Source of the DNA: Chloroflexota bacterium
GTDB taxonomy: Bacteria; Chloroflexota; Dehalococcoidia; GIF9; UBA5629
DNA: 40,384 nucleotides
Assembly (NCBI GenBank): GCA_020354105.1
Contig: CP070642.1
Span: 1,670,691-1,711,074 of the forward strand
Direction of reading: 5' to 3'
Shown here: one piece after another, positions 302 through 28,788 of the stretch
Position numbering within the stretch: position 1 is the first letter of the stretch
How the letters are laid out: the number at the start of each line of letters is the position of its first letter
Made by a program: the position numbers and the translations under genes
Notes under the pieces: generated by a model
Databases searched by the model: none
Told to the model about the DNA's origin: nothing
What the model saw: only the letters and a program-made list of their open reading frames with translations

Positions 302-2611
302 TCAGTGTATAACTGCATCCAAAGGCACCTCAGAAGTATAAGTTCCCATCAAAGTGGGCAAAGTCAAGACTGGCTTCTCTTTCCAGCCGACCTTCTCAAG
401 ATATGCCATTACTTCCTTCTTAAAGAAGATAGGTATATCCGAAGCTTTTCTAACGAACAGGTGAAGGTCGTCCGGCAGGCTACCCAGATACTGCTTATGC
501 AGGGCAATATAATGGGTAAGCTTCAATTGGCGCCCCTGAGCAGTATCATTCTTCCTGATGCACAATTTTGCCATGGTGACCATCGCCCTCTCTTTGGACT
601 CTACAACTGTAATCAGATGTTCAGGCGACGGCTCCTCAGTGTTCACCAGCTTTCTCTCCCTGCCATCCATCACTGTCCAGTCATCCTCCTCCTTCCGGCT
701 CATATAGAGCCTTCTATATTTGGAGGAATGAGGGCCAACAACTACGGGTATTCCCAGCCTGTTACAGCCGGTGGCGATTGATGCCGCCTTCTGAGAATAA
801 GCTCCCCAGGCAAGGCCGCAGGCACCGACGCGGTTTAAGATATAGTCGGCTATAACCTCATAGTTACCTCTCAGAGGTAGTGTGGCAAATATATTGGCCA
901 CCTTCATAGCAGCCCCGGTGATATGTGAGTTTGCTACGCAGGAACCGACGTTAAGAACTCCGCCGGCATCGAAATTGGGCGGATATTTCTCATAAATAGT
1001 TTTGCCGTCTTTATCCTTCTTCATCCCAGCTGCCATGGCTGAGCAACCACTCAGCACAACGATGTATTTCCTCTTGGCGAATTCCTCAGCGATGTCAGCT
1101 ATCTCAGTGATTTCTTCGGGGAAGTTGGAGCAGCCGACAATTGCAATGATGCCAGGGATGGTGCCGAGAACGATAGGCGCACCGACCTTTCTTATCTCTA
1201 CGTCCATAATTGGACCTCGCCCCACCCTCATCTTCCAAGTTTCCCAGCTGGCTGCTGCCTGCATCATCTTGATTATGGGCACATGGCGAGGGCATTCCTG
1301 GTCGCACTTGCCGCAGCCGATGCATTTGTTGAACACTTCCACCAACGGTTGTATATTGCCATTTTTGGCTGCCTCGATGGCATCGCCAACCGGCAGCAAG
1401 TTGGGGCAAACCTGGCTGCACATATTGCACAGCCGATGGTCTTTAGCCATGTCCGGCACCTCTTCGGGCTTAACCAAGACTTTATTCCTCTTCGGCGCCA
1501 GTTCCAGAGCCACCTTCACCGCTACCTCGGCAGCCTTATCTGGGTCAAATATCAAGGTCTGCTTTCCACCTACCATTTCTTTCACTACCTCGTCTGTTTC
1601 CCTCTTGGTCACATCTTCAAGTCCGTAGCAGATTTTGTCATTGGTGGCAATTAGTGCCGTGCCCACCTTGGCAGCCTCGCCGGGTACATCACACCTGACA
1701 CATTGCTCATCGGTGACTATAACATCAGCAATGCCCGTCCTGATAAAGAAAAGCTGGCGGGACAGCGGGCCGATCACCTTGGCCCTATCGCTGTATCGCA
1801 CCACCTCTTGCGCGGTACAACAAATGCCGGCGACTTCGACCTTATCCTGCAAACCATGCTCGTTTATATAATCAACGATGGGAATAGCCGTAACCGGTTT
1901 ATGCCCAATCAGGCAAATCACTGGCTTCGTCCTGTCCACCGCTCCCCAACCCAGATCAACCAAGGGAGTTTCAGCCACAGAGGTTGGATAGCCGAAACCA
2001 ACTATCTCGGCAATATCAGCGGCTTCCAAGGCGACGTGGTCCAGCATGGAGATATGAAGGGCTTTGGACTCATAGTCCAGAGCCGACCCTTCCTGCCCGG
2101 TATGAAGTGCCGAAATACAATGGATAAGCTGGTTCTCCACATACTCAACAGCCTTTTCCAGGTCACCCAAAGTTTCAGGCTTCAGCCCCATGACCGTTCT
2201 TATATGCGGTGCCTCCACAAGTACCTGGTCGCCCAGGTTAATTTTATAATCTCTGCCATGCTTCTCAATCAAATAGTGAAGCACATGCCTTGCATGGCCA
2301 CCATGGGCTGCCGTACCCATGCAGCAAGCTAAGAGGACAACCCTTGCCTGCTGTGCGGAAATATCGATTCCACAAGCCCCCCTCTTATCTCCGGTGAGAT
2401 CGCATTTGCCGTAGGTGCAGAAGCAGCACAAATCGCACATGGGAGCATAAAAAGGCTTGTAGGTCTTGAGCAGTCTCATGTCCCAGTTTCTTAAATCTGG
2501 AAGCTCAGGCATAGGTGTATGACCTACAGGCTCCCAGTTATCTTCAGCCCGGATAATCTCGTCAACCGTCTCTTTTCGTAAATTCTTCTTCTTTTTGCTA
2601 ACTACAGCCAT
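302..2611 (-). CDS. cdhA: Archaeal-type carbon monoxide dehydrogenase catalytic (alpha) subunit of the CODH/ACS complex
   Basis: 769 aa. N-terminal Cys cluster PMCDLCCFCTYGKCDLTGDKRGACGID; VIGHKP, GICCTA and DEQCVR motifs; internal 2x[4Fe-4S] insert (CNMCSQVCP, CIGCGKCDQECP); C-terminal GSCVANSHI and RVGACGLAWGAYSQKAASI. Colinear with Methanosarcina CdhA as I recall it. GGAGG SD upstream of ATG 2611. Confidence 0.9.
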   Translation of the reverse strand: MAVVSKKKKNLRKETVDEIIRAEDNWEPVGHTPMPELPDLRNWDMRLLKTYKPFYAPMCDLCCFCTYGKCDLTGDKRGACGIDISAQQARVVLLACCMGTAAHGGHARHVLHYLIEKHGRDYKINLGDQVLVEAPHIRTVMGLKPETLGDLEKAVEYVENQLIHCISALHTGQEGSALDYESKALHISMLDHVALEAADIAEIVGFGYPTSVAETPLVDLGWGAVDRTKPVICLIGHKPVTAIPIVDYINEHGLQDKVEVAGICCTAQEVVRYSDRAKVIGPLSRQLFFIRTGIADVIVTDEQCVRCDVPGEAAKVGTALIATNDKICYGLEDVTKRETDEVVKEMVGGKQTLIFDPDKAAEVAVKVALELAPKRNKVLVKPEEVPDMAKDHRLCNMCSQVCPNLLPVGDAIEAAKNGNIQPLVEVFNKCIGCGKCDQECPRHVPIIKMMQAAASWETWKMRVGRGPIMDVEIRKVGAPIVLGTIPGIIAIVGCSNFPEEITEIADIAEEFAKRKYIVVLSGCSAMAAGMKKDKDGKTIYEKYPPNFDAGGVLNVGSCVANSHITGAAMKVANIFATLPLRGNYEVIADYILNRVGACGLAWGAYSQKAASIATGCNRLGIPVVVGPHSSKYRRLYMSRKEEDDWTVMDGRERKLVNTEEPSPEHLITVVESKERAMVTMAKLCIRKNDTAQGRQLKLTHYIALHKQYLGSLPDDLHLFVRKASDIPIFFKKEVMAYLEKVGWKEKPVLTLPTLMGTYTSEVPLDAVIH

Positions 2612-2679
2612 TATGGATACCTCCTTATATAAAGATGGTTACTATTTAATTATACTATTAATGAGAATAGTTATCAATA

Positions 2680-3585
2680 TTATATCTTGCCTTCGATAAC
2701 CTCTCTCATGAGTTTACAGTTTTCGGGCTGTCTCAATACCAGGACATTGGCTCCAGCCAAAAGAAGGCTGATAGCCGTAATGCCCTCCCATAAAAGCCCC
2801 TGCTTCTCATTTTCTTTAGCCTGCTTAGTCCTGGCACACTCGCTGCCCAGGTCGGCGATAATCGGCATCTGCATGGTGTTATCGCCGAACATGACGCCGA
2901 TGTGCTTGGTTCTCTCCATTATGGTGAAGCTATATTCCATGCCATAACCCAGGGCTGAGCTTAATGGGTCAATAACTATCCGCTCACTGGGGAATGTTTT
3001 CAGCAGCTTTACGTTCAATTCTTTCTCCAGGTTTATGTCCAACGGAGATTGAGCGATTATGCAATGCCCGTGGTCCAGAGCCGCTTTGCTTATAGGCTCA
3101 TAGTTTTCCTTGGCCACCGGTCCCATGAGGAGGTTTTCACCAGCGCAAACTTCCGCCACTTTGGTCAGAACCTCGATATCCTTAGTTTCATCTCCCGAGC
3201 CATAGACGATAAGCGGCCTGTTTATGGCCGATGCCACCTGTTTGACCACCGCGGCAGCCTTGTCTGCAGGAGCATTCGCCCCTGCCGGGTCAGTGCTCAC
3301 CAAGCGCAGACAAACCAGGTCAGCGCCAAAGTCCAGGCATTTCTTCGCCCATGCCACCGGGTCAGAGAGCACATCTTTGTACGGCCGGCATTCCCATTCG
3401 GTCCAGTTCGTAGGCGCAGCATCAAGTACTTCTAAAGCCAGCCGAGGCCCATTTTCTATCTTGCCTTCAAAAAAATGAAAAGGGAGAACACTCTCTCCCC
3501 CAATTTTTAAAGCTTTTTCCCCCTTCCCGATAACCACCTCGGCCACTTTTCCTGAATAGGTCTCCAAAGGTGCTTTGTAGTCCAT
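2680..3585 (-). CDS. acsD: Corrinoid iron-sulfur protein small subunit (AcsD / CdhD-like)
   Basis: 301 aa. LPFHFFEG, GENLLMG, IIAQSPLDINLEKELN, IDPLSSALGYGMEYSFTIMER and LLWEGITAISLLLAGANVLVLRQPE match Moorella AcsD segment by segment (from memory). GGAG SD. Confidence 0.88.
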   Translation of the reverse strand: MDYKAPLETYSGKVAEVVIGKGEKALKIGGESVLPFHFFEGKIENGPRLALEVLDAAPTNWTEWECRPYKDVLSDPVAWAKKCLDFGADLVCLRLVSTDPAGANAPADKAAAVVKQVASAINRPLIVYGSGDETKDIEVLTKVAEVCAGENLLMGPVAKENYEPISKAALDHGHCIIAQSPLDINLEKELNVKLLKTFPSERIVIDPLSSALGYGMEYSFTIMERTKHIGVMFGDNTMQMPIIADLGSECARTKQAKENEKQGLLWEGITAISLLLAGANVLVLRQPENCKLMREVIEGKI

Positions 3586-3608
3586 CTTTCACTCCTTCTT
3601 AAAGAATT

Positions 3609-4487
3609 CTAACTCTCGAGCCAGGCGTGAGAGTAAAGCGTCTCTCCCATAAGCACTTTCGTGGTTTTGACGTAATCCCGCTCCTTTTGCGACAGCGAAC
3701 CCAAGTCTACAGCCTCCCCGTCCATCGTCTTATATATGAGGTCAACGATATTAGGTAGCTCGCCCCTATTTAGCTTGACCAGTTCCTCATCCAGTACGTC
3801 GGCAATCGCCGAGTACAGTCCCCTTCTTCCCAGCATCGTCATGTAGGTACGGTTGAGAATACCTCTGAACTCATCAGGTGTGCCGTTGGACACATTTGAC
3901 AATCCCACCGTCGACTTGACACCAGGCATAAGGTCCTGCAGCATGCCGATGAATTCCACTGCATCAGCAACTTGTTTCTGATCGGCGCTCACCGGCAGTA
4001 TTATGGGGTCAACCCAGATATCTTCGTTTGGGATACCCAGTTCGTTGGCTAAGGCGATTGTCTCCATAATGCTCTCTATCCGGGAATCGATGTCAGGAGG
4101 ACAGCCTTTGTCGGTCAGCACCGAAATGACGACATCGGTATTGTATTTCTTCGCTAGGGGCAGCACCAGTTCCTTACTGTCAGTCCTTCCCGAGGCTGAG
4201 TTGAGCAGAGGCCTCTTCTTACAGGCTTTGAGGCCGGCTTCCATGGCTACGGGATTCAAAGTGTCCACGGATATGGGTAAATCACTAACCCCTTGAATTG
4301 CATCGACCAGCCACTGGGTTACCTCTTCCGGGTCTCTTTTCGCCGGTCCTAGGTTTAGGTCTATGTAGTCTGCGCCAGCGGCAGTCTGTGCTTTTGCCAG
4401 GTCCTGTATTACCTTGGGATTGCGTTCCTTGACAGCGTCATTGACATCCTTGGAAATAATATGAATGCTTTCGCCAATTAAAACCAT
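3609..4487 (-). CDS. acsE: Methyltetrahydrofolate:corrinoid/iron-sulfur protein methyltransferase (pterin-binding domain)
   Basis: 292 aa. The MVLIGESIH start, YIDLNLGPA, SVDTLNPVAMEAGLKACKKRPLLNS, VDPIILP and GLSNVS are the MeTr/AcsE pterin-binding barrel motifs. AAGGGGG SD. Ends in TAG. Confidence 0.88.
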   Translation of the reverse strand: MVLIGESIHIISKDVNDAVKERNPKVIQDLAKAQTAAGADYIDLNLGPAKRDPEEVTQWLVDAIQGVSDLPISVDTLNPVAMEAGLKACKKRPLLNSASGRTDSKELVLPLAKKYNTDVVISVLTDKGCPPDIDSRIESIMETIALANELGIPNEDIWVDPIILPVSADQKQVADAVEFIGMLQDLMPGVKSTVGLSNVSNGTPDEFRGILNRTYMTMLGRRGLYSAIADVLDEELVKLNRGELPNIVDLIYKTMDGEAVDLGSLSQKERDYVKTTKVLMGETLYSHAWLES

Positions 4488-11313: not shown

Positions 11314-13776
11314 TTACTCAGTTTTAGCCTTGCCGCCTCCCTTGCCATTCCCCTGATCGACAAAGGCCATAGAGGCAACACTGTCATCCGGATCAATTCT
11401 ATTTACCCGAACCCCCTGTGTATCTCTGCCAAAGAGCGAGACCTCCTCGTCTACAGGAACACGGATGATGATTCCTTTAGACGAAATAATAATGACATGC
11501 TGATTGGGAGGAACGAGTTTAGCTGAAATAACACAACCTGTCTTATCATTAATTCGATGAGCAATTACCCCTTTGCCACCCCGGGACTGAAGAGGGAAAT
11601 TCCGCGCCCGGCTACGCTTACCAAAGCCTTTCTCCGTAATCGTAAGCAGGTTAGCATCAGGGAATATGGCATCCATTGCCACCAGGCGGTCACCAGGATC
11701 AAGTCTGATGCCACGCACGCCACCGCTAGCCCGAGATGCCGGTCGTAAGCCCTTCACAGCAAACCTGATACCTTGCCCTTTTTGAGTCACCAAAACGACT
11801 TCATCTTTCTGGCTAACCACATCAGCCGCCACCAACTCCTCATCTCCTCGAAGCTTCATGGCAATAAGTCCACTGCTTCTTACCGAAGCAAAATTATCGA
11901 AACTCGTCTTCTTCACTATACCTCTTGAAGTAGCTATAATCATAAACAAGCCAGGAGTGAAATCTTTTACAACCACCAAGGTAGTTACCTGCTCCTTCGG
12001 GTCAATAGACGATAGGTTAGCCAGAGCTGTTCCCTTCGTAGTTCGCGATACATCTTGGGGTATATCGTAACATTTGAGCCTGTAAACCTTACCCCTATTG
12101 GTAAAAAGCAGTAAATTATCATGAGTATCAGCTACCACGAGATGTTTCACCATATCGGTCTCTCTAGTCACCATCCCTATTTGACCCCGACCTCCTCGAT
12201 GCTGCTTTTGATACGTTATAGCCGGTATTCTTTTTATGTATCCCTGTTCACTCAGCGTAATCACCACATCCTGATGGGGAATAAGATCCTCGTCCTGAAA
12301 CTCCTCGGCCTCCTCCCGTTTAATAGCGGTGCGGCGCTGGTCGCCATACCCCTTCTTAAGCTCGGTGACGTCCTGCTGAATCAGGAAAAGTATTTTCTTC
12401 GGATTAGCCAGAAGGTCTTCAAGATAAGCGATGTTCTTGACCACTTCGCTGTACTCATCGACTATTTTCTTCTGCTCCAGCTGTGCCAAGCGACGTAATT
12501 GCATATCAAGGATAGCCTGAGCTTGAATCTGAGACAGCGCAAAGTTCTCCATCAAGCTGGCTCGAGCTGAATCCACCGTCTCCGCTTTCCGTATAGTCTG
12601 AATAACCGCATCCAGATGGTCAAGAGCAATTCTGAAGCCTTCCAGTACATGGGCTCGATCCTTCGCCTTCTGGAGGTCGAACTGGGAGCGACGGGTGATA
12701 ACCTCCCGACGAAAATCTATATAGTAATTCAAGGTTTCCTTAAGATTAAGTACTCGAGGCTGCTGCCCATCAACCAGAGCCAACATGTTGATGAAGAAGG
12801 ATGACCGCATAGGAGTATATTTATAGAGGTTGTTACAAATCTTGGTAGGCTGAGCATCCTTTCTCAAACCTATAACTATCCTCATACCATGGCGATCAGA
12901 TTCATCGCGTACCTCACTTACCCCCTCGATCCTTCTCTCTCTGACCAAGTTAGCTATTCTTTCCACCAGGGCAGCTTTATTCGTCTGATAAGGAAGCTCT
13001 GTTATGACTAATTGCTGACGTCCGCCCCTCAAAGTTTCATCAGTAACTTTAGCCTGAACTACAACCTTGCCTTGCCCGCTGGCGTAAGCGCTCTTAATGC
13101 CCTCCCTGCCTAATATAATGCCTCCGGTGGGGAAATCCGGCCCTTTCACAATCTTCATCAAGTCATCGACATCGGCCTCGGGGTTATCTATAAGATGATT
13201 GATAGCATCGCATACCTCGCTTAAGTTATGAGGCGGGATATTGGTAGCCATACCGACAGCAATGCCTGATGAACCATTCACCAGTAAATTGGGTAATCTG
13301 GCTGGTAAAACCCGTGGTTCCTTTAAGCTATCATCAAAATTAGGCGCAAAATCAACGGTTTCTTTATCAATATCAACCAGCATTTCCTCGGCGATTTTTG
13401 CCAGGCGAGCCTCGGTATATCGCATAGCCGCCGGTGGGTCATCATCCATGCTGCCGAAATTACCCTGCCCATCAACAAGCCTGTACCTCATAGAAAAATC
13501 TTGCGCCATTCTGACCATGGCTTCATATACCGGGGCATCTCCATGAGGATGATACTTACCAAGAACCTCACCGACTATGCGAGCGCTCTTTTTATAAGAA
13601 CTGGTATGTCGGAGACCCAGTCCATCCATGGCATATAGGATGCGCCGATGAACCGGTTTCTACCCATCGCGCACATCGGGCAGGGCTCGCTGGACTATGA
13701 CACTAATGGCATAGTCAAGGTAGGAGCTCTTCATCTCTTCTTCAATGATAACCGGTTTTATTACTCCAACTTCCAT
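11314..13776 (-). CDS. gyrA: DNA gyrase subunit A, full-length reading frame interrupted by one in-frame TAG (13662..13660)
   Basis: The track ORF (11314..13629) starts at [31 protein letters not shown], which is residue ~50 of a normal GyrA. Reading the same frame upstream from ATG 13776 (GGAG SD) gives [51 protein letters not shown]. The TAG replaces the Leu of the conserved RDGLKPVHRR motif. There are no other stops in 820 codons. Confidence 0.9.
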
Positions 13777-13819
13777 CTAAACATCTCCTGAAAATTTCGC
13801 TCGCTTCAGGGGCAATTAA

Positions 13820-14656
13820 CTAGTCTTCCATGAACTCCTCTTCTATCCCCGTTTCCTCATCAGAGGAAACCCCCTCAAATATAGAGAAGCCTTCGGGTAT
13901 AAGCTCACCCTCTTCTAATTCCATATCTTCTGCCTCTTCCAGCGCTTCCTCTTCCACAGCCTCATGTCTAAGCAGAGTATCTCTAACATGGGGTTGAAAG
14001 CCTTCAACTGCTTTAACTGGAAAGGAAAGACGCCCAACTTGGCTCGGGTGCTGAAAAACCTCTCTGATGATAACCCTGGCGCTGTCATTACTGATACTGA
14101 CAAGAGCCGCGGTGTATTTATTTCCACCTTCTATCATTCTAGCCAGGCGAAAACCGTGAGGCGGCTCAACTAGTCCCAAATACTCCCCTTGGTCATTTTC
14201 CACAATAAGCTGCTGTCCCTTAACCTTCAAGTGCACTTGATTACCAGCAGCCATCCTGGCCAACAACTCACTAGGTGCCAGGCTCTGTAGATTTACCACA
14301 CCAGCCTTTCCCATCTCGCCGATGAAAAGGTCCGGGGATACCTCGCGGCGTTCCTCTTGTACTTTAACCTGGGAATCGGGCAACAAAGACAGCCGCTGGA
14401 GATTTCTTTGAGCGATAGAATTATAAGGGTCAAGTCCCAGAGCTCGAGAATATGCCTCTTTGGCCCTGGCAAATTCGCCCAATTCCATAAATGCCCTACC
14501 AAGCCTGTTGTAGGCATCAATATCTGTAGGCAAAAGCTCTATTATGTTCTGATTTACAGTTATTGCTTCCTGCCAACGGCTCTGCATAGCCAAGGAAATA
14601 GCTTCTTGGCTCGCCTTTCGTCTCAGCCTAGCTTTATCTTCTTCACGGTCGGGCAT
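13820..14656 (-). CDS. TPR-repeat protein with an uncharacterised C-terminal domain and acidic tail
   Basis: 278 aa. The N-terminal ~90 aa show TPR-like A/Y/L periodicity (AYNRLGRAFMELGEFARAKEAYSRALGLDPYN). The C-terminal 45 aa are E/D-rich. It lies 43 nt upstream of gyrA on the same strand. Confidence 0.6.
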   Translation of the reverse strand: MPDREEDKARLRRKASQEAISLAMQSRWQEAITVNQNIIELLPTDIDAYNRLGRAFMELGEFARAKEAYSRALGLDPYNSIAQRNLQRLSLLPDSQVKVQEERREVSPDLFIGEMGKAGVVNLQSLAPSELLARMAAGNQVHLKVKGQQLIVENDQGEYLGLVEPPHGFRLARMIEGGNKYTAALVSISNDSARVIIREVFQHPSQVGRLSFPVKAVEGFQPHVRDTLLRHEAVEEEALEEAEDMELEEGELIPEGFSIFEGVSSDEETGIEEEFMED

Positions 14657-14767
14657 TGCTTGCTCCCTGTATTACCTCTCCAGAATAACCTTATCATTTT
14701 ACCGCAGTCACTTTTGCAGAAAAAGTGAACAATGTCAAGTACCCCCAGGTTAAGTAAACAAATAATT

Positions 14768-14796
14768 TTGACAAAAAAGACTGATTATGTTAGCTT
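14768..14796 (+). promoter_or_regulatory. Candidate extended -10 promoter for the nifU-like gene
   Basis: TTGACA (14768-14773), 17-nt spacer ending in TGT, then TAGCTT (14791-14796). Confidence 0.4.
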
Positions 14797-14836
14797 ACTA
14801 CAACAATAAATACAAGCGAAAGCAAGAGGGAGACCT

Positions 14837-15055
14837 GTGAAAGAAAAGGTACAAGAAATCCTGAACAATATTAGACCGAGCCTCCAAGCCGACGGGGGAG
14901 ATGTAGAACTAGTTGACGTTAAAGAAGGCATAGTCAGTCTAAGGCTCAAGGGGGCCTGTGCTGGTTGTCCTATGTCAACCATGACGCTCAAGAACGGCAT
15001 TGAGCGAGTACTGAAACAAGAGATATCCGATATAAAAGAAGTTGTCGCTGTGTAG
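14837..15055 (+). CDS. NifU C-terminal-domain (Nfu-type) Fe-S cluster carrier protein
   Basis: 72 aa, GTG start. [17 protein letters not shown]....[17 protein letters not shown] is the Nfu/NifU C-terminal CxxC signature. GAGGGAGA SD. Confidence 0.85.
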
Positions 15056-15057
15056 CG

Positions 15058-16281
15058 TTAAATTAAATCTTGTTCCAGATCAAAAGCCTTGTGCAACGCT
15101 TGAATAGCGTCCTTTACCTTACCTTCAGCAATAATACAGGTTATCCTGATTTCTGAAGTAGTAATCAATTGTATATTGATTCCCTGTTCAGAAAGAGCCC
15201 GAAACATATTAGCCGCATAGCCCGGCGTATTCAGCATGCCGGTGCCAACAACGCTAACTTTGGCTAGTGTCGAATCGCTGACACATTGCTTCGCCCCGAT
15301 AGATTTGGCTATCGGTTGCACCAGAGACATTGCCTTATCTGAATCACCTCTAGCCACAGTAAAGGTTAAGTCTGTAATATTGTCGATGCTGGCATTCTGA
15401 ACGATAGTGTCTACACTTATGTTTGCTTTAGCTAACGGTTCGAAGATTGCTGAAGCTATACCCGGACGGTCAGGAACACCGACCACAGTAATTTTAGCCA
15501 CATTAAGGTCATGAGCTATACCCCGCGCTTTGTTTCTCACTTCCATCGAAATCCCTCCGTGAATAATAGTACCAGGCTTATCACTAAAGCTGGAGGCCAC
15601 CATTATCGGCATTTTATAAACCTGGCCCAACTCCACCGCCCGAGAATGCATCACTTTGGCACCTAATGTCGCCATCTCCAGCATTTCCTCGTAGCCTATT
15701 TCCTTAAGCTTGCGGGCTTCAGGCACAAGGCGAGGGTCAGCAGTAAACACACCCTCAACATCCGTGTATATCTGGCACATCTGAGCCTTAAGAGCAGCCG
15801 CCAGAGCGACCGCCGTTGTATCCGAGCCGCCTCGACCCAGGGTAGCGATATCCATATCATCAGTCATCCCTTGGAATCCAGCTACAATAACTATATTGCC
15901 TTTCTCCAGCTCTTTAACAACTCGTTTGGGTTCAATGTGCAGGATGCGAGCCTTGCTGTAAGTGGTGTCAGTCCGGATGCCTGCCTGGGCACCGCTCAAG
16001 CTCACTGCCTCATAGCCCATCTCATGCAAAGCCATAGCCATAAGGGTGCTGGATACTACCTCGCCGGTGGACAATAAGACATCGAGTTCCCGCTCCTGAG
16101 GTTTTGGGTTAATCTGCCTGGCTAGCTGAATAAGGTCATCAGTGGTATCGCCCATGGCCGAGACAACCACAACCACCTCATTACCTTTCTCTTTGGTGGC
16201 AACTATGCGCCGAGCCACATTCTTTATCTTATCGGCATCAGCCACCGAGCTGCCGCCATATTTCTGAACTATTAGTGCCAT
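15058..16281 (-). CDS. lysC: Aspartate kinase
   Basis: 407 aa. [10 protein letters not shown]-terminus, [22 protein letters not shown], and two C-terminal ACT-like regions. Confidence 0.93.
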
Positions 16282-17649: not shown

Positions 17650-17726
17650 CGGGGCGTAGCGCAGCCTGGTAGCGCGCAGCGTTCGGGACGCTGAGGTCGG
17701 AGGTTCGAACCCTCTCGCCCCGACCA
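17650..17726 (+). tRNA. tRNA-Pro (anticodon CGG), CCA encoded
   Basis: Folded by hand. Acceptor CGGGGCG/CGCCCCG; D stem GCGC/GCGC with AGCCTGGTA loop; anticodon stem CAGCG/CGCTG with loop TT-CGG-GA; variable loop AGGTC; T arm GGAGG-TTCGAAC-CCTCT; discriminator A; CCA. 77 nt. Confidence 0.93.
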
Positions 17727-20619: not shown

Positions 20620-21978
20620 TTGAAGTCAGCACAAGAAATCTGGGAAGCCGCTCTAGGGGAACTTCAACTCCAAGTAAATAAGCCGAACTATGATACCTGG
20701 CTTAAGGACACCAGCGGCATAAGCTACAAGGAAGATGTCTTTGTTATCGGTGTCCCTAATGTCTTCATCGCCGAATGGCTAAGAAGTCGCCTCCACTCCC
20801 TGATTAAAAGGACCTTAACCAGCATTACCGGCAAGACCATTGACGTCCAATTTGCCATTCGAGCTCTCAGCCAGGATATCTGCCCAACACCTGCTCACCA
20901 AGCTGACGGCGGGATAAGCGCTAGGCTCAAGGAACCGATCACACCAGCGTTCAGACTAAATTCAAAATACAACTTTGACAGCTTTGTAGTCGGGGAATGC
21001 AACCGTCTGGCTTACGCAGCAGCTCTAGAGATTTCTGAGGACCCAGGAAACAAATACAACCCGCTCTATATCTACGGTGACACTGGCACAGGCAAGACTC
21101 ACCTGCTGCATGCCATAGGACACACAGCCAAAGCTAAGGGCTTTCGCATACTCCTGGCTAGCGCCGAGCAGTTTACTAACCAATTTGTAATCGCCCTCAA
21201 GAACAACAAGATCGATGACTTCCACCGCAAGTTCAGGAGTGCCGACTTCTTGCTGGTGGATGATATTCAATTCCTGAGTGGCAAAACACAAACCCAGGAA
21301 TGCTTACTATATATTTTCAACGACCTTTACGAAAATAACTGCCAGATGGTAATGACCAGTGACCGTCCGCCAAAAGCCATATCCTCGGTCACCAAGAAAT
21401 TAAAGTCCCGGCTCGAGTGGGGGCTTATCGCCGACTTGGAGATGCCGGATTTGGAAACGCGCCTGGCCATCCTGAGAGTTAAAGCGCGGCAATTGAACGC
21501 GTCTCTTCCACCGGATGTTCTACGGTTTCTAGCAACGCAGTTCCAGCACAATACCCGGGAATTAGAAGGTGCCCTTACTAGAGTAGTAACTTACTCTAGG
21601 CTGAGCGGCACAAAAGTAGATATGCACCTAACCACACAATCACTGGCGGACATAATACCGCAAGACAGCAGGTACGAAACCAAATTTACGCCAAAGCGCA
21701 TAATGACCACCATAGCTAACTACTACGACATCGACCTCGAAGGATTAACAGGCAAACGGAGAGACAAGAAATCCGTATTAGCCCGCCAGATCACCATGTA
21801 CCTGTTGCGCGAGCAAAACCACTGTAGCCTGGCAGAAATCGGCAAAATATTAGGAGGCCGAGACCACACGACCATAATTCACGGCTACGATAAAATCGTT
21901 GCAGAACTAGATGTTAATCCACAAATTCGCGACTCAATCAAAGAAATCCGCCAAAAATTGAACCCCAAAAGAACTTAA
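20620..21978 (+). CDS. dnaA: Chromosomal replication initiator DnaA
   Basis: Walker A GDTGTGKTHLL, Walker B LLVDDIQF, sensor/box VII MTSDRPP, C-terminal DNA-binding HTTI..G. I prefer the in-frame TTG at 20620 (MKSAQEIWEAAL...), which aligns with the Bacillus DnaA N-terminus. The track's GTG 20530 would add 30 non-conserved hydrophobic/Gly-Trp residues. Confidence 0.9.
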   Translation: MKSAQEIWEAALGELQLQVNKPNYDTWLKDTSGISYKEDVFVIGVPNVFIAEWLRSRLHSLIKRTLTSITGKTIDVQFAIRALSQDICPTPAHQADGGISARLKEPITPAFRLNSKYNFDSFVVGECNRLAYAAALEISEDPGNKYNPLYIYGDTGTGKTHLLHAIGHTAKAKGFRILLASAEQFTNQFVIALKNNKIDDFHRKFRSADFLLVDDIQFLSGKTQTQECLLYIFNDLYENNCQMVMTSDRPPKAISSVTKKLKSRLEWGLIADLEMPDLETRLAILRVKARQLNASLPPDVLRFLATQFQHNTRELEGALTRVVTYSRLSGTKVDMHLTTQSLADIIPQDSRYETKFTPKRIMTTIANYYDIDLEGLTGKRRDKKSVLARQITMYLLREQNHCSLAEIGKILGGRDHTTIIHGYDKIVAELDVNPQIRDSIKEIRQKLNPKRT

Positions 21979-22186
21979 TCCACATTTTGACACAGGCGCT
22001 TGTGGAAAAATGGCGCGAGGCAGTGGATAACTTCTCCAACTCTGTTGATAACCTTCCGTATTGCAGATTGAAATATCGGGACTTTCCGCCCATAATATAC
22101 TTCCATTCACATAATGACACTTCTTAATAGTATTATTATAGGAATTACATCTCTAATAGATATAAAGATATTATAAGGATACTAGT
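21976..22186. other. Predicted oriC: DnaA-box cluster plus AT-rich unwinding region
   Basis: Four 8/9 matches to TTATCCACA: TAATCCACA 21976-21984 (+), TTTTCCACA (rc of 22001-22009), TTATCCACT (rc of 22022-22030), TTATCAACA (rc of 22043-22051). A strongly AT-rich tract follows at about 22090-22185 and includes TAA-TAG-TAT-TAT-TAT at 22125-22139. Gene strand bias flips here. Confidence 0.6.
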
Positions 22187-23867: not shown

Positions 23868-25799
23868 CTAGATGTCCAGGTTTCTGACACTTTTGGCGTG
23901 GGCCTGGATGAATGATTTTCTGGGTGGCACTTCGCTGCCCATGAGCATATGGAATACCCTGTCGGCCGCCATGGCATCTTCGATTTCCACCTTGAGCAAA
24001 GTTCGCGATGCCGGGTTCATGGTGGTGTCCCAGAGCTGCACGGCGCTCATTTCTCCCAATCCCTTATAGCGCTGTACTTCTAGTTTGTTGCTTTTAAGCT
24101 CCTGGAGCTTGGCCTCCTTTTCTTGCTCTGAGTAAATCCAGAATTGTTGCTTGCCCGCTTGGATGCGGTAGAGAGGTGGCTGTGCGATGAAAAGGTGGCC
24201 CTGGCTTATTAGCTCTGCCATGTTGCGGTAGAAGAAGGTGAGAAGCAGTGTCCGTATATGAGAACCGTCGACGTCGGCATCAGTCATGATTATTATGCGG
24301 TGGTAGCGTAGTCGGGAGAAGTCGACCTGGTCACCAATGCCGGCTCCTACCGCGGTTATAATGGCACGGATTTCTTCATGTTCCAGAATCTTGTCTTTAG
24401 GAGCCTTCTCCACATTAAGGATTTTACCTCGTAACGGTAAAATAGCTTGGAAACGGCGGTCTCGTCCCTGCTTGGCTGAACCTCCGGCTGAGTCACCCTC
24501 AACCAGGTAAAGCTCACACTCGCGAGGGTCGGTCTCTGAACAGCCAGCCAGCTTTCCGGGCAGAGTGCCGCCTTCTAATCCGCTTCTCTTAAAGATAAGG
24601 TCGCGAGCCTTTTTAGCTGCCTCTCTGGCTTTAGCTGAAACTAGGCACTTATCTATGATTGATTTTGCGTCATCGGGATGCTGCTCCAGATACAGCGAAA
24701 GTCCATCAGCCACTATGGCTTCGACCTGCGTCTTTATTTCAGGATTGCCTAATTTAGCTTTAGTTTGTCCCTCAAACTGTGGTTCAACAAGCTTAACACT
24801 GATGACCGATGTCAGCCCGTCGCGAACATCATCACCTATCAGATTGGGGTCGGAATCCTTCAGCAGCTTGTTTTTCCGGGCATAGTCGTTCAGTACGCGG
24901 GTTAGCGCTGAGCGAAATCCGGTGAGATGGCTGCCGCCATCTATCGTATTGACGCAGTTGGCAAAGCTAATCGTGGATTCAGAAAAGCCGTCATTGTATT
25001 GCAGTGCTACTTCTACAACGGTGCTGTTCATTGTGCCGGATATGTAGATGGGCTGGTTATTTAGTACTTGCCTGTCTTTATTGAACCGGGCGACAAGGCT
25101 GGCTATACCACCTTCAAATAGGAACGTTGCCTCCTGGTCGGTTCTCTCATCTTTGAAGCTTATTTCCAGGTTCTTGTTCAGAAAAGCCAGCTCTTTGAGA
25201 CGCTCGCGGATTGTGTCAAAGTGGTAGTTAATCTCACCGAAGATTTCAGTGTCGGCCATGAAAGTGATGATGGTCCCCGTTTTATCGGTATCGCCGATAG
25301 CTTCTAAATCGCAGGTAGGGTTACCCCGTTCATATTTCTGACAGTAGACTTTCCCCTCTCGATTAACCTGGGCATTGAGCCAGGCAGACAGGGCGTTTAC
25401 CACTGAAGCACCAACGCCATGCAAGCCGCTGGATACTGTATAAGTGCGGCCGCCAAATTTGGCTCCAGCGTGTAGCCGGGTCATCACTGCCTCTAGTGCC
25501 GAGGTATTAGTTGTCGGGTGAACGTCCACCGGTATACCCCGGCCATTGTCGATAACTGTTACCGAGCTGTCTTCATGAATTATTACCTCGGTTCTGTCAC
25601 AATAGCCGGCCATTGCCTCGTCTATGCTGTTGTAGACAATCTCATATACCAGATGGTGCAGACCGTGTTCATCTGTGCTGCCAATGTACATGCCCGGGCG
25701 GCGGCGCACCGCCTCCAGGCCGTCCAGAATACGGATATCCTCTGCGGTGTAATCTTCGGAAGTGTTATTGTTTGTATTTTTGTTAGCTTTTTTTGACAT
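23868..25799 (-). CDS. gyrB: DNA gyrase subunit B
   Basis: 643 aa. YTAEDIRILDGLEAVRRRPGMYIGS, EIVYNSIDE, GLHGVGASVVNALS, the Toprim LYLVEGDSAGGSAKQGRDR and IMTDADVDGSHI, and the C-terminal LQRYKGLGEM. Confidence 0.95.
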   Translation of the reverse strand: MSKKANKNTNNNTSEDYTAEDIRILDGLEAVRRRPGMYIGSTDEHGLHHLVYEIVYNSIDEAMAGYCDRTEVIIHEDSSVTVIDNGRGIPVDVHPTTNTSALEAVMTRLHAGAKFGGRTYTVSSGLHGVGASVVNALSAWLNAQVNREGKVYCQKYERGNPTCDLEAIGDTDKTGTIITFMADTEIFGEINYHFDTIRERLKELAFLNKNLEISFKDERTDQEATFLFEGGIASLVARFNKDRQVLNNQPIYISGTMNSTVVEVALQYNDGFSESTISFANCVNTIDGGSHLTGFRSALTRVLNDYARKNKLLKDSDPNLIGDDVRDGLTSVISVKLVEPQFEGQTKAKLGNPEIKTQVEAIVADGLSLYLEQHPDDAKSIIDKCLVSAKAREAAKKARDLIFKRSGLEGGTLPGKLAGCSETDPRECELYLVEGDSAGGSAKQGRDRRFQAILPLRGKILNVEKAPKDKILEHEEIRAIITAVGAGIGDQVDFSRLRYHRIIIMTDADVDGSHIRTLLLTFFYRNMAELISQGHLFIAQPPLYRIQAGKQQFWIYSEQEKEAKLQELKSNKLEVQRYKGLGEMSAVQLWDTTMNPASRTLLKVEIEDAMAADRVFHMLMGSEVPPRKSFIQAHAKSVRNLDI

Positions 25800-26006: not shown

Positions 26007-26291
26007 CTAATGCAAGCTATCGTGCTTGTAGCTGTTTTGGAGAAGCTGCAGTATACTGGGCCCTTTAAGATCTGCGGAGCCACAGCCGTCGCTATCGAAG
26101 TGGCGGCATACGGTGCAGGTCACGCTGTACTTGTTTACCTCGCTTATATTTACGAAGAGGTCACAGTTCTCAGCACTACGGTCAAACCATTCCTCTAGGA
26201 CTTCGGTGGTCTGTGGGAAGTGGGCTCTGAAGCCTCTGGAGATTAAAAAGCCAGAGCTAGCGGAGTTGCTTGGCGGGAGGTAAATACGCAT
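26007..26291 (-). CDS. Hypothetical small Cys-containing protein (last gene of the Fe-S operon)
   Basis: 94 aa from ATG 26291 (AAGGG 7-11 nt upstream, 13 nt after the upstream stop). Four Cys spaced C-x16-C-x2-C-x7-C (ENCDLF...VTCTVCRHFDSDGC). I recognise no family. Its coding status rests on ORF length and operon position. Confidence 0.35.
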   Translation of the reverse strand: MRIYLPPSNSASSGFLISRGFRAHFPQTTEVLEEWFDRSAENCDLFVNISEVNKYSVTCTVCRHFDSDGCGSADLKGPSILQLLQNSYKHDSLH

Positions 26292-26304
26292 TTGCAGCCC
26301 TTGA

Positions 26305-26886
26305 CTATACTGAGATACAGAACTCACACATACCGTTCTGTGGCAGTGTCTTTGGCATCTCGATACTTATGCGGTCGCCGGTCTTCTCTGCAGCAGCCTC
26401 GAAACTGGCGCAGCAGAACCCTTTGCAAGGGAGGCCCTTTATGCCGGACTCCTCCAGCGCCTTGTTTATTGCACAGGCAGATACCTGAAGCACCAGCTCT
26501 TTGGTGGTTGCTCTGGATATATTCCAGCGGTCTGTAGGCCTCAGTCCAAAGATGGATAACTCAACATACCTGCCCAGGCGATGGGGGAATGATATGCCTG
26601 TCTGCTTGTACACATTCTCCACCATCTCCCCGGTGCGGTCCAGGTATTTGGTGTCAGCCAGCTCGATGGTGAGCTTCATCACCTTTTTGCCCAGTTCCTC
26701 GAGAGCTTTGTATGCCTCCTTCTCGTCCTTGCCTTGCAGGCTCTTAGCTGCAGCTCCTACATCGAACTTCTGAGTAACTTCCTCTACCAGACCTTTATCA
26801 GCGTCGAAGAGCAGAGCTTTCCCGGGCTCTTCCAGGGTCAGTAATTTTTCCTTTAATACCTTGCCGTATTTCCAGCCAGTGGTCAT
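26305..26886 (-). CDS. Hypothetical protein with a C-terminal Cys cluster (possibly ATC-hydrolase-like fold, unverified)
   Basis: 193 aa from ATG 26886, chosen over the track's 26964 because GGAGG lies 7 nt upstream and the ATG overlaps the upstream TGA (ATGA coupling). The C-terminus SACAINKALEESGIKGLPCKGFCCASFEAAAEKTGDRISIEMPKTLPQNGMCEFC loosely resembles the C...C..(D)...T...G..C.F end of PF14196 proteins as I recall them. Confidence 0.55.
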   Translation of the reverse strand: MTTGWKYGKVLKEKLLTLEEPGKALLFDADKGLVEEVTQKFDVGAAAKSLQGKDEKEAYKALEELGKKVMKLTIELADTKYLDRTGEMVENVYKQTGISFPHRLGRYVELSIFGLRPTDRWNISRATTKELVLQVSACAINKALEESGIKGLPCKGFCCASFEAAAEKTGDRISIEMPKTLPQNGMCEFCISV

Positions 26887-27137
26887 TTCTTTACCTCCGT
26901 TAAGAAGCTCACTTGAATGGCGCTCTTGGGACAGACTTTCACACAGTCCATGCAGACGGTGCATTTTTCATAGCGGACCCCCGCCACCATGAACTGGTCC
27001 GGGTCTATCTCCTTGAATTTTCGAGGACCCACCTTGGTGCCCAGTCCCAGGGCGTGGCTCGGACAGATTAGAAGGCACTTCCGGCAAGCGAGCGGGTCAT
27101 TGCATTTTTTATCGTCTACTGTGATAGTTGGCAGCAT
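26883..27137 (-). CDS. Small ferredoxin-like protein, two [4Fe-4S]-type motifs (first one atypical)
   Basis: 84 aa. CNDPLACRKCLLICP (C-x5-C-x2-C-x3-CP) and CTVCMDCVKVCP (C-x2-C-x2-C-x3-CP), separated by about 35 aa. GAGAGGGA SD. Confidence 0.75.
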   Translation of the reverse strand: MLPTITVDDKKCNDPLACRKCLLICPSHALGLGTKVGPRKFKEIDPDQFMVAGVRYEKCTVCMDCVKVCPKSAIQVSFLTEVKK

Positions 27138-28290: not shown

Positions 28291-28788
28291 ATGCCCACGG
28301 TCAATCAGTTAGTTCGAAAAGGACGACGGAGGCTTGGCAAGCGAACCAAGGCTCCGGCGCTTGGCGTTACCTATAATACCCTGAAAAACAGAGTACGTAG
28401 GGATACAAACTCGCCGCAGAAGCGAGGAGTTTGTGTGCTGGTCAAGACAATGACTCCCAAAAAACCGAACTCTGCATTGCGCAAGATCGCTCGCGTGCGG
28501 TTGACCAACCAGATTGAAGTAACTGCTTATATACCTGGCGAAGGGCACAATTTGCAGGAGCACTCTGTGGTACTTATCCGTGGTGGCAGAGTCAAGGATT
28601 TGCCGGGGGTTCGCTACCATATTGTTCGAGGTGCTCTGGATACCGGTGGGGTGGAAAATCGGCAGCAGGGGCGAAGCAAGTACGGGGCTAAGCGCGGTAG
28701 AGCAGTGAGGATTGCGGGAGCAGGAGCGGGAGCGGAAACAGCAACGGAAGCAGCAACAGAAGCAGCAACGGGAGAGGGAGAGGAATAA
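28291..28788 (+). CDS. rpsL: Ribosomal protein S12 with a ~27-aa Ala/Gly/Thr/Glu C-terminal extension
   Basis: [66 protein letters not shown]. It then continues [30 protein letters not shown] up to a TAA that directly abuts the rpsG ATG. Confidence 0.95.

Follow-up and report, generated by a model that had tools for sequence, protein, structure and literature searches.

DNA gyrase is essential, and in the genome fragment studied here the gyrA gene carries an in-frame TAG at codon 39. Does the organism tolerate this stop, does it translate through it, or is the stop confined to the assembled sequence? We addressed this question in a stretch of 40,384 nucleotides from a bacterium of the Dehalococcoidia (assembly GCA_020354105.1, contig CP070642.1), referred to as the window, by comparing the locus with homologous proteins, with related DNA loci and with an independent assembly of the same strain.

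Identity of the interrupted frame

The gyrA frame occupies 11314..13776 on the minus strand. It starts with the ATG at 13776..13774, which is preceded at 8 nt by an AGGAG Shine-Dalgarno sequence (13789..13785, minus strand), and ends with a TAA at 11314. Its 820 sense positions are interrupted once, by the TAG at codon 39 (13662..13660, minus strand), and no second stop or frameshift was found in the whole 820-codon frame. The mechanical ORF list gives only the 771-aa ORF from the ATG at 13629 for this gene.

Judged from its translation, the product of the interrupted frame would unmistakably be GyrA. It shares 97% identity with P0001, a full-length protein of 820 aa, and 85-94% with dozens of GyrAs of 819-820 aa from Dehalococcoidia/Chloroflexota MAGs, and a comparison with the PDB matched the solved structures of E. 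coli GyrA over residues 6-143 (E=7e-64). The translation contains the catalytic tyrosine motif AAMRYTE of the breakage-reunion domain, for which close homologues carry PF00521, as well as the GyrA box QHRGGRG, whose QxRGGxG type sets GyrA apart from ParC. Homologues at 97-67% identity also carry the beta-pinwheel repeats PF03989. The one GyrA hallmark that the window breaks is a continuous frame through the N-terminal arm (YAMSVIxxRALPDxRDGLKPVHRR), within which the stop is located.

The gene for the partner subunit, gyrB (23868..25799, minus strand), is intact. It encodes 643 aa with the Pfam domains HATPase_c, DNA_gyraseB, Toprim and DNA_gyraseB_C, ends in TAG and adjoins dnaA, 10 kb away from gyrA. 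At and just past the 3' end of dnaA, five DnaA-box-like 9-mers with at most one mismatch to TTATCCACA lie within about 140 nt (21915-22051), and the whole window holds 22 such matches where 8.6 are expected; this arrangement makes a replication origin between dnaA and obg likely. Elsewhere in the window, two adjacent minus-strand ORFs of 219 and 106 aa (26007-26964) overlap by 23 nt in different frames. Neither has a Pfam hit or an exact record, and they would be a pair of small unknown genes or a single gene with a frameshift. The region 302-4487 (minus strand) encodes a CO dehydrogenase/acetyl-CoA synthase set (Prismane/CODH family, CdhD and a pterin-binding methyltransferase) with a radical SAM gene and an acetyl-CoA synthetase as neighbours, a gene content that points to Wood-Ljungdahl-type metabolism in this Dehalococcoidia lineage.

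Conservation of codon 39 and use of TAG

In the alignment with the solved structures, codon 39 corresponds to Leu41 of E. coli GyrA. Leucine occupies this column in all 130 full-length homologues and in 251 of all 255 homologues that were retrieved. At the DNA level, codon 39 is TTG and never TAG in all of the roughly 20 related loci from three collections (among them L001, L002, L003, L007-L013 and L016-L020), so that a single T-to-A transversion is enough to explain the stop. Site-pattern scans of metagenome and genome contig collections likewise returned only TTG at this site. When looked up exactly, neither the 38-aa N-terminal peptide nor the 771-aa ORF had a record, and two further protein searches together with a cluster listing yielded no same-strain fragment crossing codon 39 at more than 97% identity. 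Two database proteins, P0077 starting at the Met that opens the 771-aa ORF and P0076 starting at the conserved Leu itself, were considered as repeats of the lesion and rejected, as both are truncations at contig edges; upstream of the point where the truncated GyrA starts, L003 encodes RDGLKPV.

Selection on the gene is strongly purifying. Compared with L001, the window gyrA differs at 112 codons synonymously and at 22 non-synonymously, that is, dS greatly exceeds dN. A decaying pseudogene would show several lesions and a dN approaching dS, and neither is seen here. The strong purifying selection, the presence of only one disabling lesion and the intact gyrB together exclude an old pseudogene or a long-standing loss of function.

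TAG is a regular terminator in this genome segment. Of 45 crude gene calls, 13 (29%) end with it, including those for S10 (102 aa), L2 (273 aa), S19, L29 and gyrB, and the ribosomal protein genes and gyrB that end in this way have canonical lengths. Reading TAG as sense joined or extended no further real gene of the window, which leaves gyrA as the only one with an internal TAG. Genome-wide reassignment of TAG is known, for example to Gln in some phages and eukaryotes, and the window shares with such systems an in-frame TAG in a conserved gene. It differs from them, however, in that TAG terminates its ribosomal protein genes and gyrB and interrupts no further gene. The only tRNA gene in the window is tRNA-Pro(CGG) (17650..17726, plus strand); within these 40 kb we found neither a suppressor tRNA with a CUA anticodon nor pyl genes. 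As a side observation on the ribosomal protein genes, the ORF for S12 (28291-28788, 165 aa) matches Pfam only from residue 37, and its mechanical start probably lies upstream of the true one.

These results bear out much of an earlier, sequence-only reading of the locus. It had placed the TAG at 13662..13660 within a gyrA frame that extends to the ATG at 13776 with its own Shine-Dalgarno sequence, had seen no further stop or frameshift, and had attributed the replacement of a universally conserved Leu to one TTG-to-TAG transversion. All of this holds, and the comparison with orthologues that it proposed as a check gave TTG at codon 39 in every related locus. Its arguments that gyrA is not an old pseudogene and that TAG, as a true terminator, has not been reassigned genome-wide agree with the codon differences (112 against 22) and with the 13 of 45 genes ending in TAG.

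Private changes close to the stop

In one respect the sequence-only reading needs correction: it described gyrA as otherwise intact and missed two amino acid changes, M24I and S29Q, which lie 15 and 10 codons upstream of the TAG and are private to the window even when compared with relatives of 97% identity. Codon 24 (13705..13707, minus strand) reads ATT (Ile) through a private base at 13705, whereas all homologues have ATG; Met is found at this position in 252 of 252 homologues, among them 130 of 130 full-length ones. Codon 29 is altered by four consecutive private bases (13690..13693, minus strand), which turn GTT TCT of the relatives into GTC CAG. Among the 209 columns that are invariant across 131 full-length homologues, the window breaks exactly two, Met24 and Leu39, and these lie 44 nt (15 residues) apart. 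The chance that two random hits on invariant columns fall so close together is about 5%.

The two changes differ in kind. The idea that S29Q is an obvious error was dropped, since Gln encoded by CAG occurs naturally at codon 29 in P0033/L020, and the change may be genuine. A similar triple-base change, G480Q (GGT to CAG), is present further downstream in the window gyrA and is common to P0103 and P0273. In both codons (13690-13692 and 12337-12339, minus strand) all three bases differ from the nearest relatives, and both CAGs are embedded in CCAGCG. With the Gln variants found in the more distant P0033 in one case and in P0103 and P0273 in the other, S29Q and G480Q may represent recombination imports.

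We also asked whether the mutation cluster could have arisen by template switching or at a quasi-palindrome. An inverted repeat (13690-13702 / 13707-13719) gains complementarity from four of the five private bases. This origin was rejected: position 13692 is untemplated, intervening mismatches are left uncorrected, and the hairpin stability of the window variant ranks only 148th among 243 possible variants.

An independent assembly of the same strain

Neighbouring proteins, looked up by exact match, led to short Logan contigs from three sequencing runs that belong to the same strain. One of them, L005 (SRR14739666), spans window positions 15521..13698 and differs from the window by a single mismatch in 1,824 nt. 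Relative to six related sequences, the window has 34 private alleles within this span, and L005 confirms 33 of them. The sole exception is 13705, where L005 carries the canonical G and codon 24 therefore reads ATG (Met). Thus, ordinary strain-specific variants are reproducible between the two assemblies, whereas the change of an invariant residue at 13705, at a distance of 44 nt from the TAG, is not. With its end at 13698, L005 provides this check for the anomaly at 13705, and the TAG base at 13661 lies beyond it. The runs also show microdiversity, with L006, L014 and L015 differing from the window at 3-6 sites. The end of L005 lies 5 nt before the CCAG run, but as a sign of a branch in the assembly graph this placement was not significant (about 0.1-0.2 by a rough estimate from contig spans).

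Broken gyrA calls in related assemblies

Public MAGs of this Dehalococcoidia clade often contain damaged gyrA calls. In the GTDB representative MAG MFD04408.bin.2.15 (contig_59185; L019:357-420), a T inserted at codon 9/10 of gyrA makes the protein read MEVGVVKPVSY before a stop, after which the normal sequence continues in the +1 frame; this insertion is probably a long-read indel error. A long-read contig of 187 kb (ENA ERZ25039461 contig_146669; L021:4001-6494) carries gyrA broken by multiple frameshifts into three gene calls of 197, 187 and 405 aa. Two sequences from different clusters, P0126 and P0128, are both broken directly after the residues CDAI, which suggests a recurrent error-prone site. 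P0273, a protein of 603 aa from a JGI contig of 3,790 nt, is a chimera: past residue ~555 it continues as the C-terminus of a TPR protein (...IPEGFSIFEGV.SDEET...), whose gene sits upstream of gyrA, and this indicates a misassembly around the gyrA locus. Finally, P0250 and P0253 are split gyrA calls; their contigs are both listed at 13,382 nt and are probably one and the same.

The window gyrA resembles such assembly and consensus errors of conserved genes in MAGs in that a single lesion, private to one assembly, disrupts a gene under purifying selection, and in that a neighbouring anomaly (13705) conflicts with a second, independent assembly of this strain. It differs in the type of lesion, as typical long-read assembly errors are indels and the changes here are base substitutions (G to T and T to A).

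Weighing the explanations

Taken together, we consider it probable that the TAG is not a property of the organism and goes back to a local error of consensus, assembly or base calling, or to an unrepresentative variant at the level of the reads. What favours this reading is that another invariant residue is violated 44 nt away and that the same-strain assembly contradicts this second violation. The TAG and the ATT at codon 24 would then belong to one local defect of this assembled sequence, affecting at least 13705 and 13661, with the step from 13705 to 13661 made by extension. Its source could be a consensus, assembly or base-calling error, or a defective read variant that was picked up at a thinly covered spot. 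Two observations count against a local defect. Elsewhere in the shared 11 kb no gene is broken, so assembly quality is not poor in general, and the errors in the relatives are indels or chimeras, whereas substitutions are found here.

A real nonsense allele of very recent origin, L39* with M24I nearby, might instead exist in the sub-population that was sampled, or in a small number of relic or non-viable genomes; if it were frequent, another, intact gyrA elsewhere in the genome could make up for it. The base is present in the given sequence, the window may derive from a sample other than that of L005, natural microdiversity exists between runs, as L006, L014 and L015 show, and a single lesion with dS far above dN would fit a brand-new mutation. 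We nevertheless regard such an allele as unlikely: gyrase is essential and gyrB is kept intact, two invariant residues are hit within 45 nt and none in the other ~780 codons, which is unlike relaxed selection, the same strain is wild-type at 13705 in SRR14739666, and the TAG allele is absent from the public collections that were scanned. Furthermore, a truncated or two-piece product would lack the equivalent of Arg32, and an Arg32Ala exchange leaves E. coli GyrA inactive in supercoiling (PMC4018983). The same residue weighs on the idea that ribosomes terminate at the TAG and reinitiate at the internal ATG of codon 50 (13627..13629, minus strand), so that a 38-aa peptide and a 771-aa GyrA would provide function together or alone. 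This ATG follows the TAG by 30 nt and opens an uninterrupted ORF, but it has no Shine-Dalgarno sequence upstream (CGGCGCATCCTATATGCC), as opposed to the AGGAG at the true start. Residues 39-49, including the equivalents of E. coli Lys42, His45 and Arg46/47, would be absent from both pieces, of which the large one would also be without residues 1-38 and the Arg32 equivalent they contain; Lys42 and His45 line the DNA-binding saddle (PMC4018983). Since, moreover, the database GyrAs that start at this Met or at the conserved Leu are contig-edge truncations, we give a functional two-piece GyrA almost no credence.

Alternatively, a tRNA that decodes amber, whether tRNA-Pyl or a mutant suppressor, may translate the UAG and yield full-length GyrA, a possibility that we consider very unlikely. 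Known Pyl codons occupy conserved positions of methylamine methyltransferases, whereas the UAG in gyrA is unique to one sequence, falls on an invariant Leu and has neither a pyl gene nor a tRNA-CUA beside it in the window. In E. coli genetics, amber nonsense mutations are rescued by suppressor tRNAs of the supE/supF type; the gyrA case is alike in that a single-base change from TTG to TAG in an essential gene would be viable only if suppressed, and differs in that no suppressor tRNA was observed in the window. On either side of the TAG the frame shows perfect conservation, and the host class fits bacterial Pyl decoding of an in-frame UAG, as Pyl systems have been reported in part of the Dehalococcoidia, with many Chloroflexi-type pylS genes and one Dehalococcoidia lineage with PylRS (Mukai et al. 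2017, PMC5424206). However, conserved or programmed recoding would place UAG in orthologues too, and TTG stands at this codon in every related locus. With 29% of genes, including ribosomal protein genes, ending in TAG, a suppressor that worked efficiently would come at a cost, and no other gene of the window has an internal TAG. Incorporation of Pyl, or of Gln, Tyr or Lys, at the invariant Leu would probably impair the enzyme. A structure 3' of the TAG that stimulates read-through was rejected as well: the RNA fold has a z-score of -2.1, but its energy of -19.3 kcal/mol lies within the range of -17 to -20 of the TTG-bearing relatives. That an amber-decoding tRNA such as tRNA-Pyl buffers a real TTG-to-TAG mutation and allows an essential gene to be expressed through UAG has, in our estimate, only a very slight chance of being true. 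Of the four options left by the sequence-only reading (error, very recent nonsense allele, local read-through or suppression, reinitiation at the ATG at 13629), an error has thus gained from the contradiction of 13705 by L005. Reinitiation is disfavoured by the missing Shine-Dalgarno sequence and the loss of the Arg32, Lys42, His45 and Arg46/47 equivalents. Local read-through finds no support, as the fold is no stronger than in the relatives and no other gene requires TAG to be read as sense.

Implications

If the TAG were both real and translated, an essential gene of an uncultured Dehalococcoidia bacterium would depend on stop-codon suppression, a notable case of flexibility of the genetic code. 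Under the preferred explanation of a local sequence defect, the practical value of our analysis is that of a quality flag: gyrA of this assembly should be treated as an intact gene with probable errors at 13661 and 13705. Annotators should record it neither as a pseudogene nor as a recoding event, and the same would generally apply to other broken gyrA calls in the public MAGs of this clade. Codons 24 and 39 of gyrA would most likely be ATG and TTG in the living population, with the gene encoding a normal GyrA of 820 aa.
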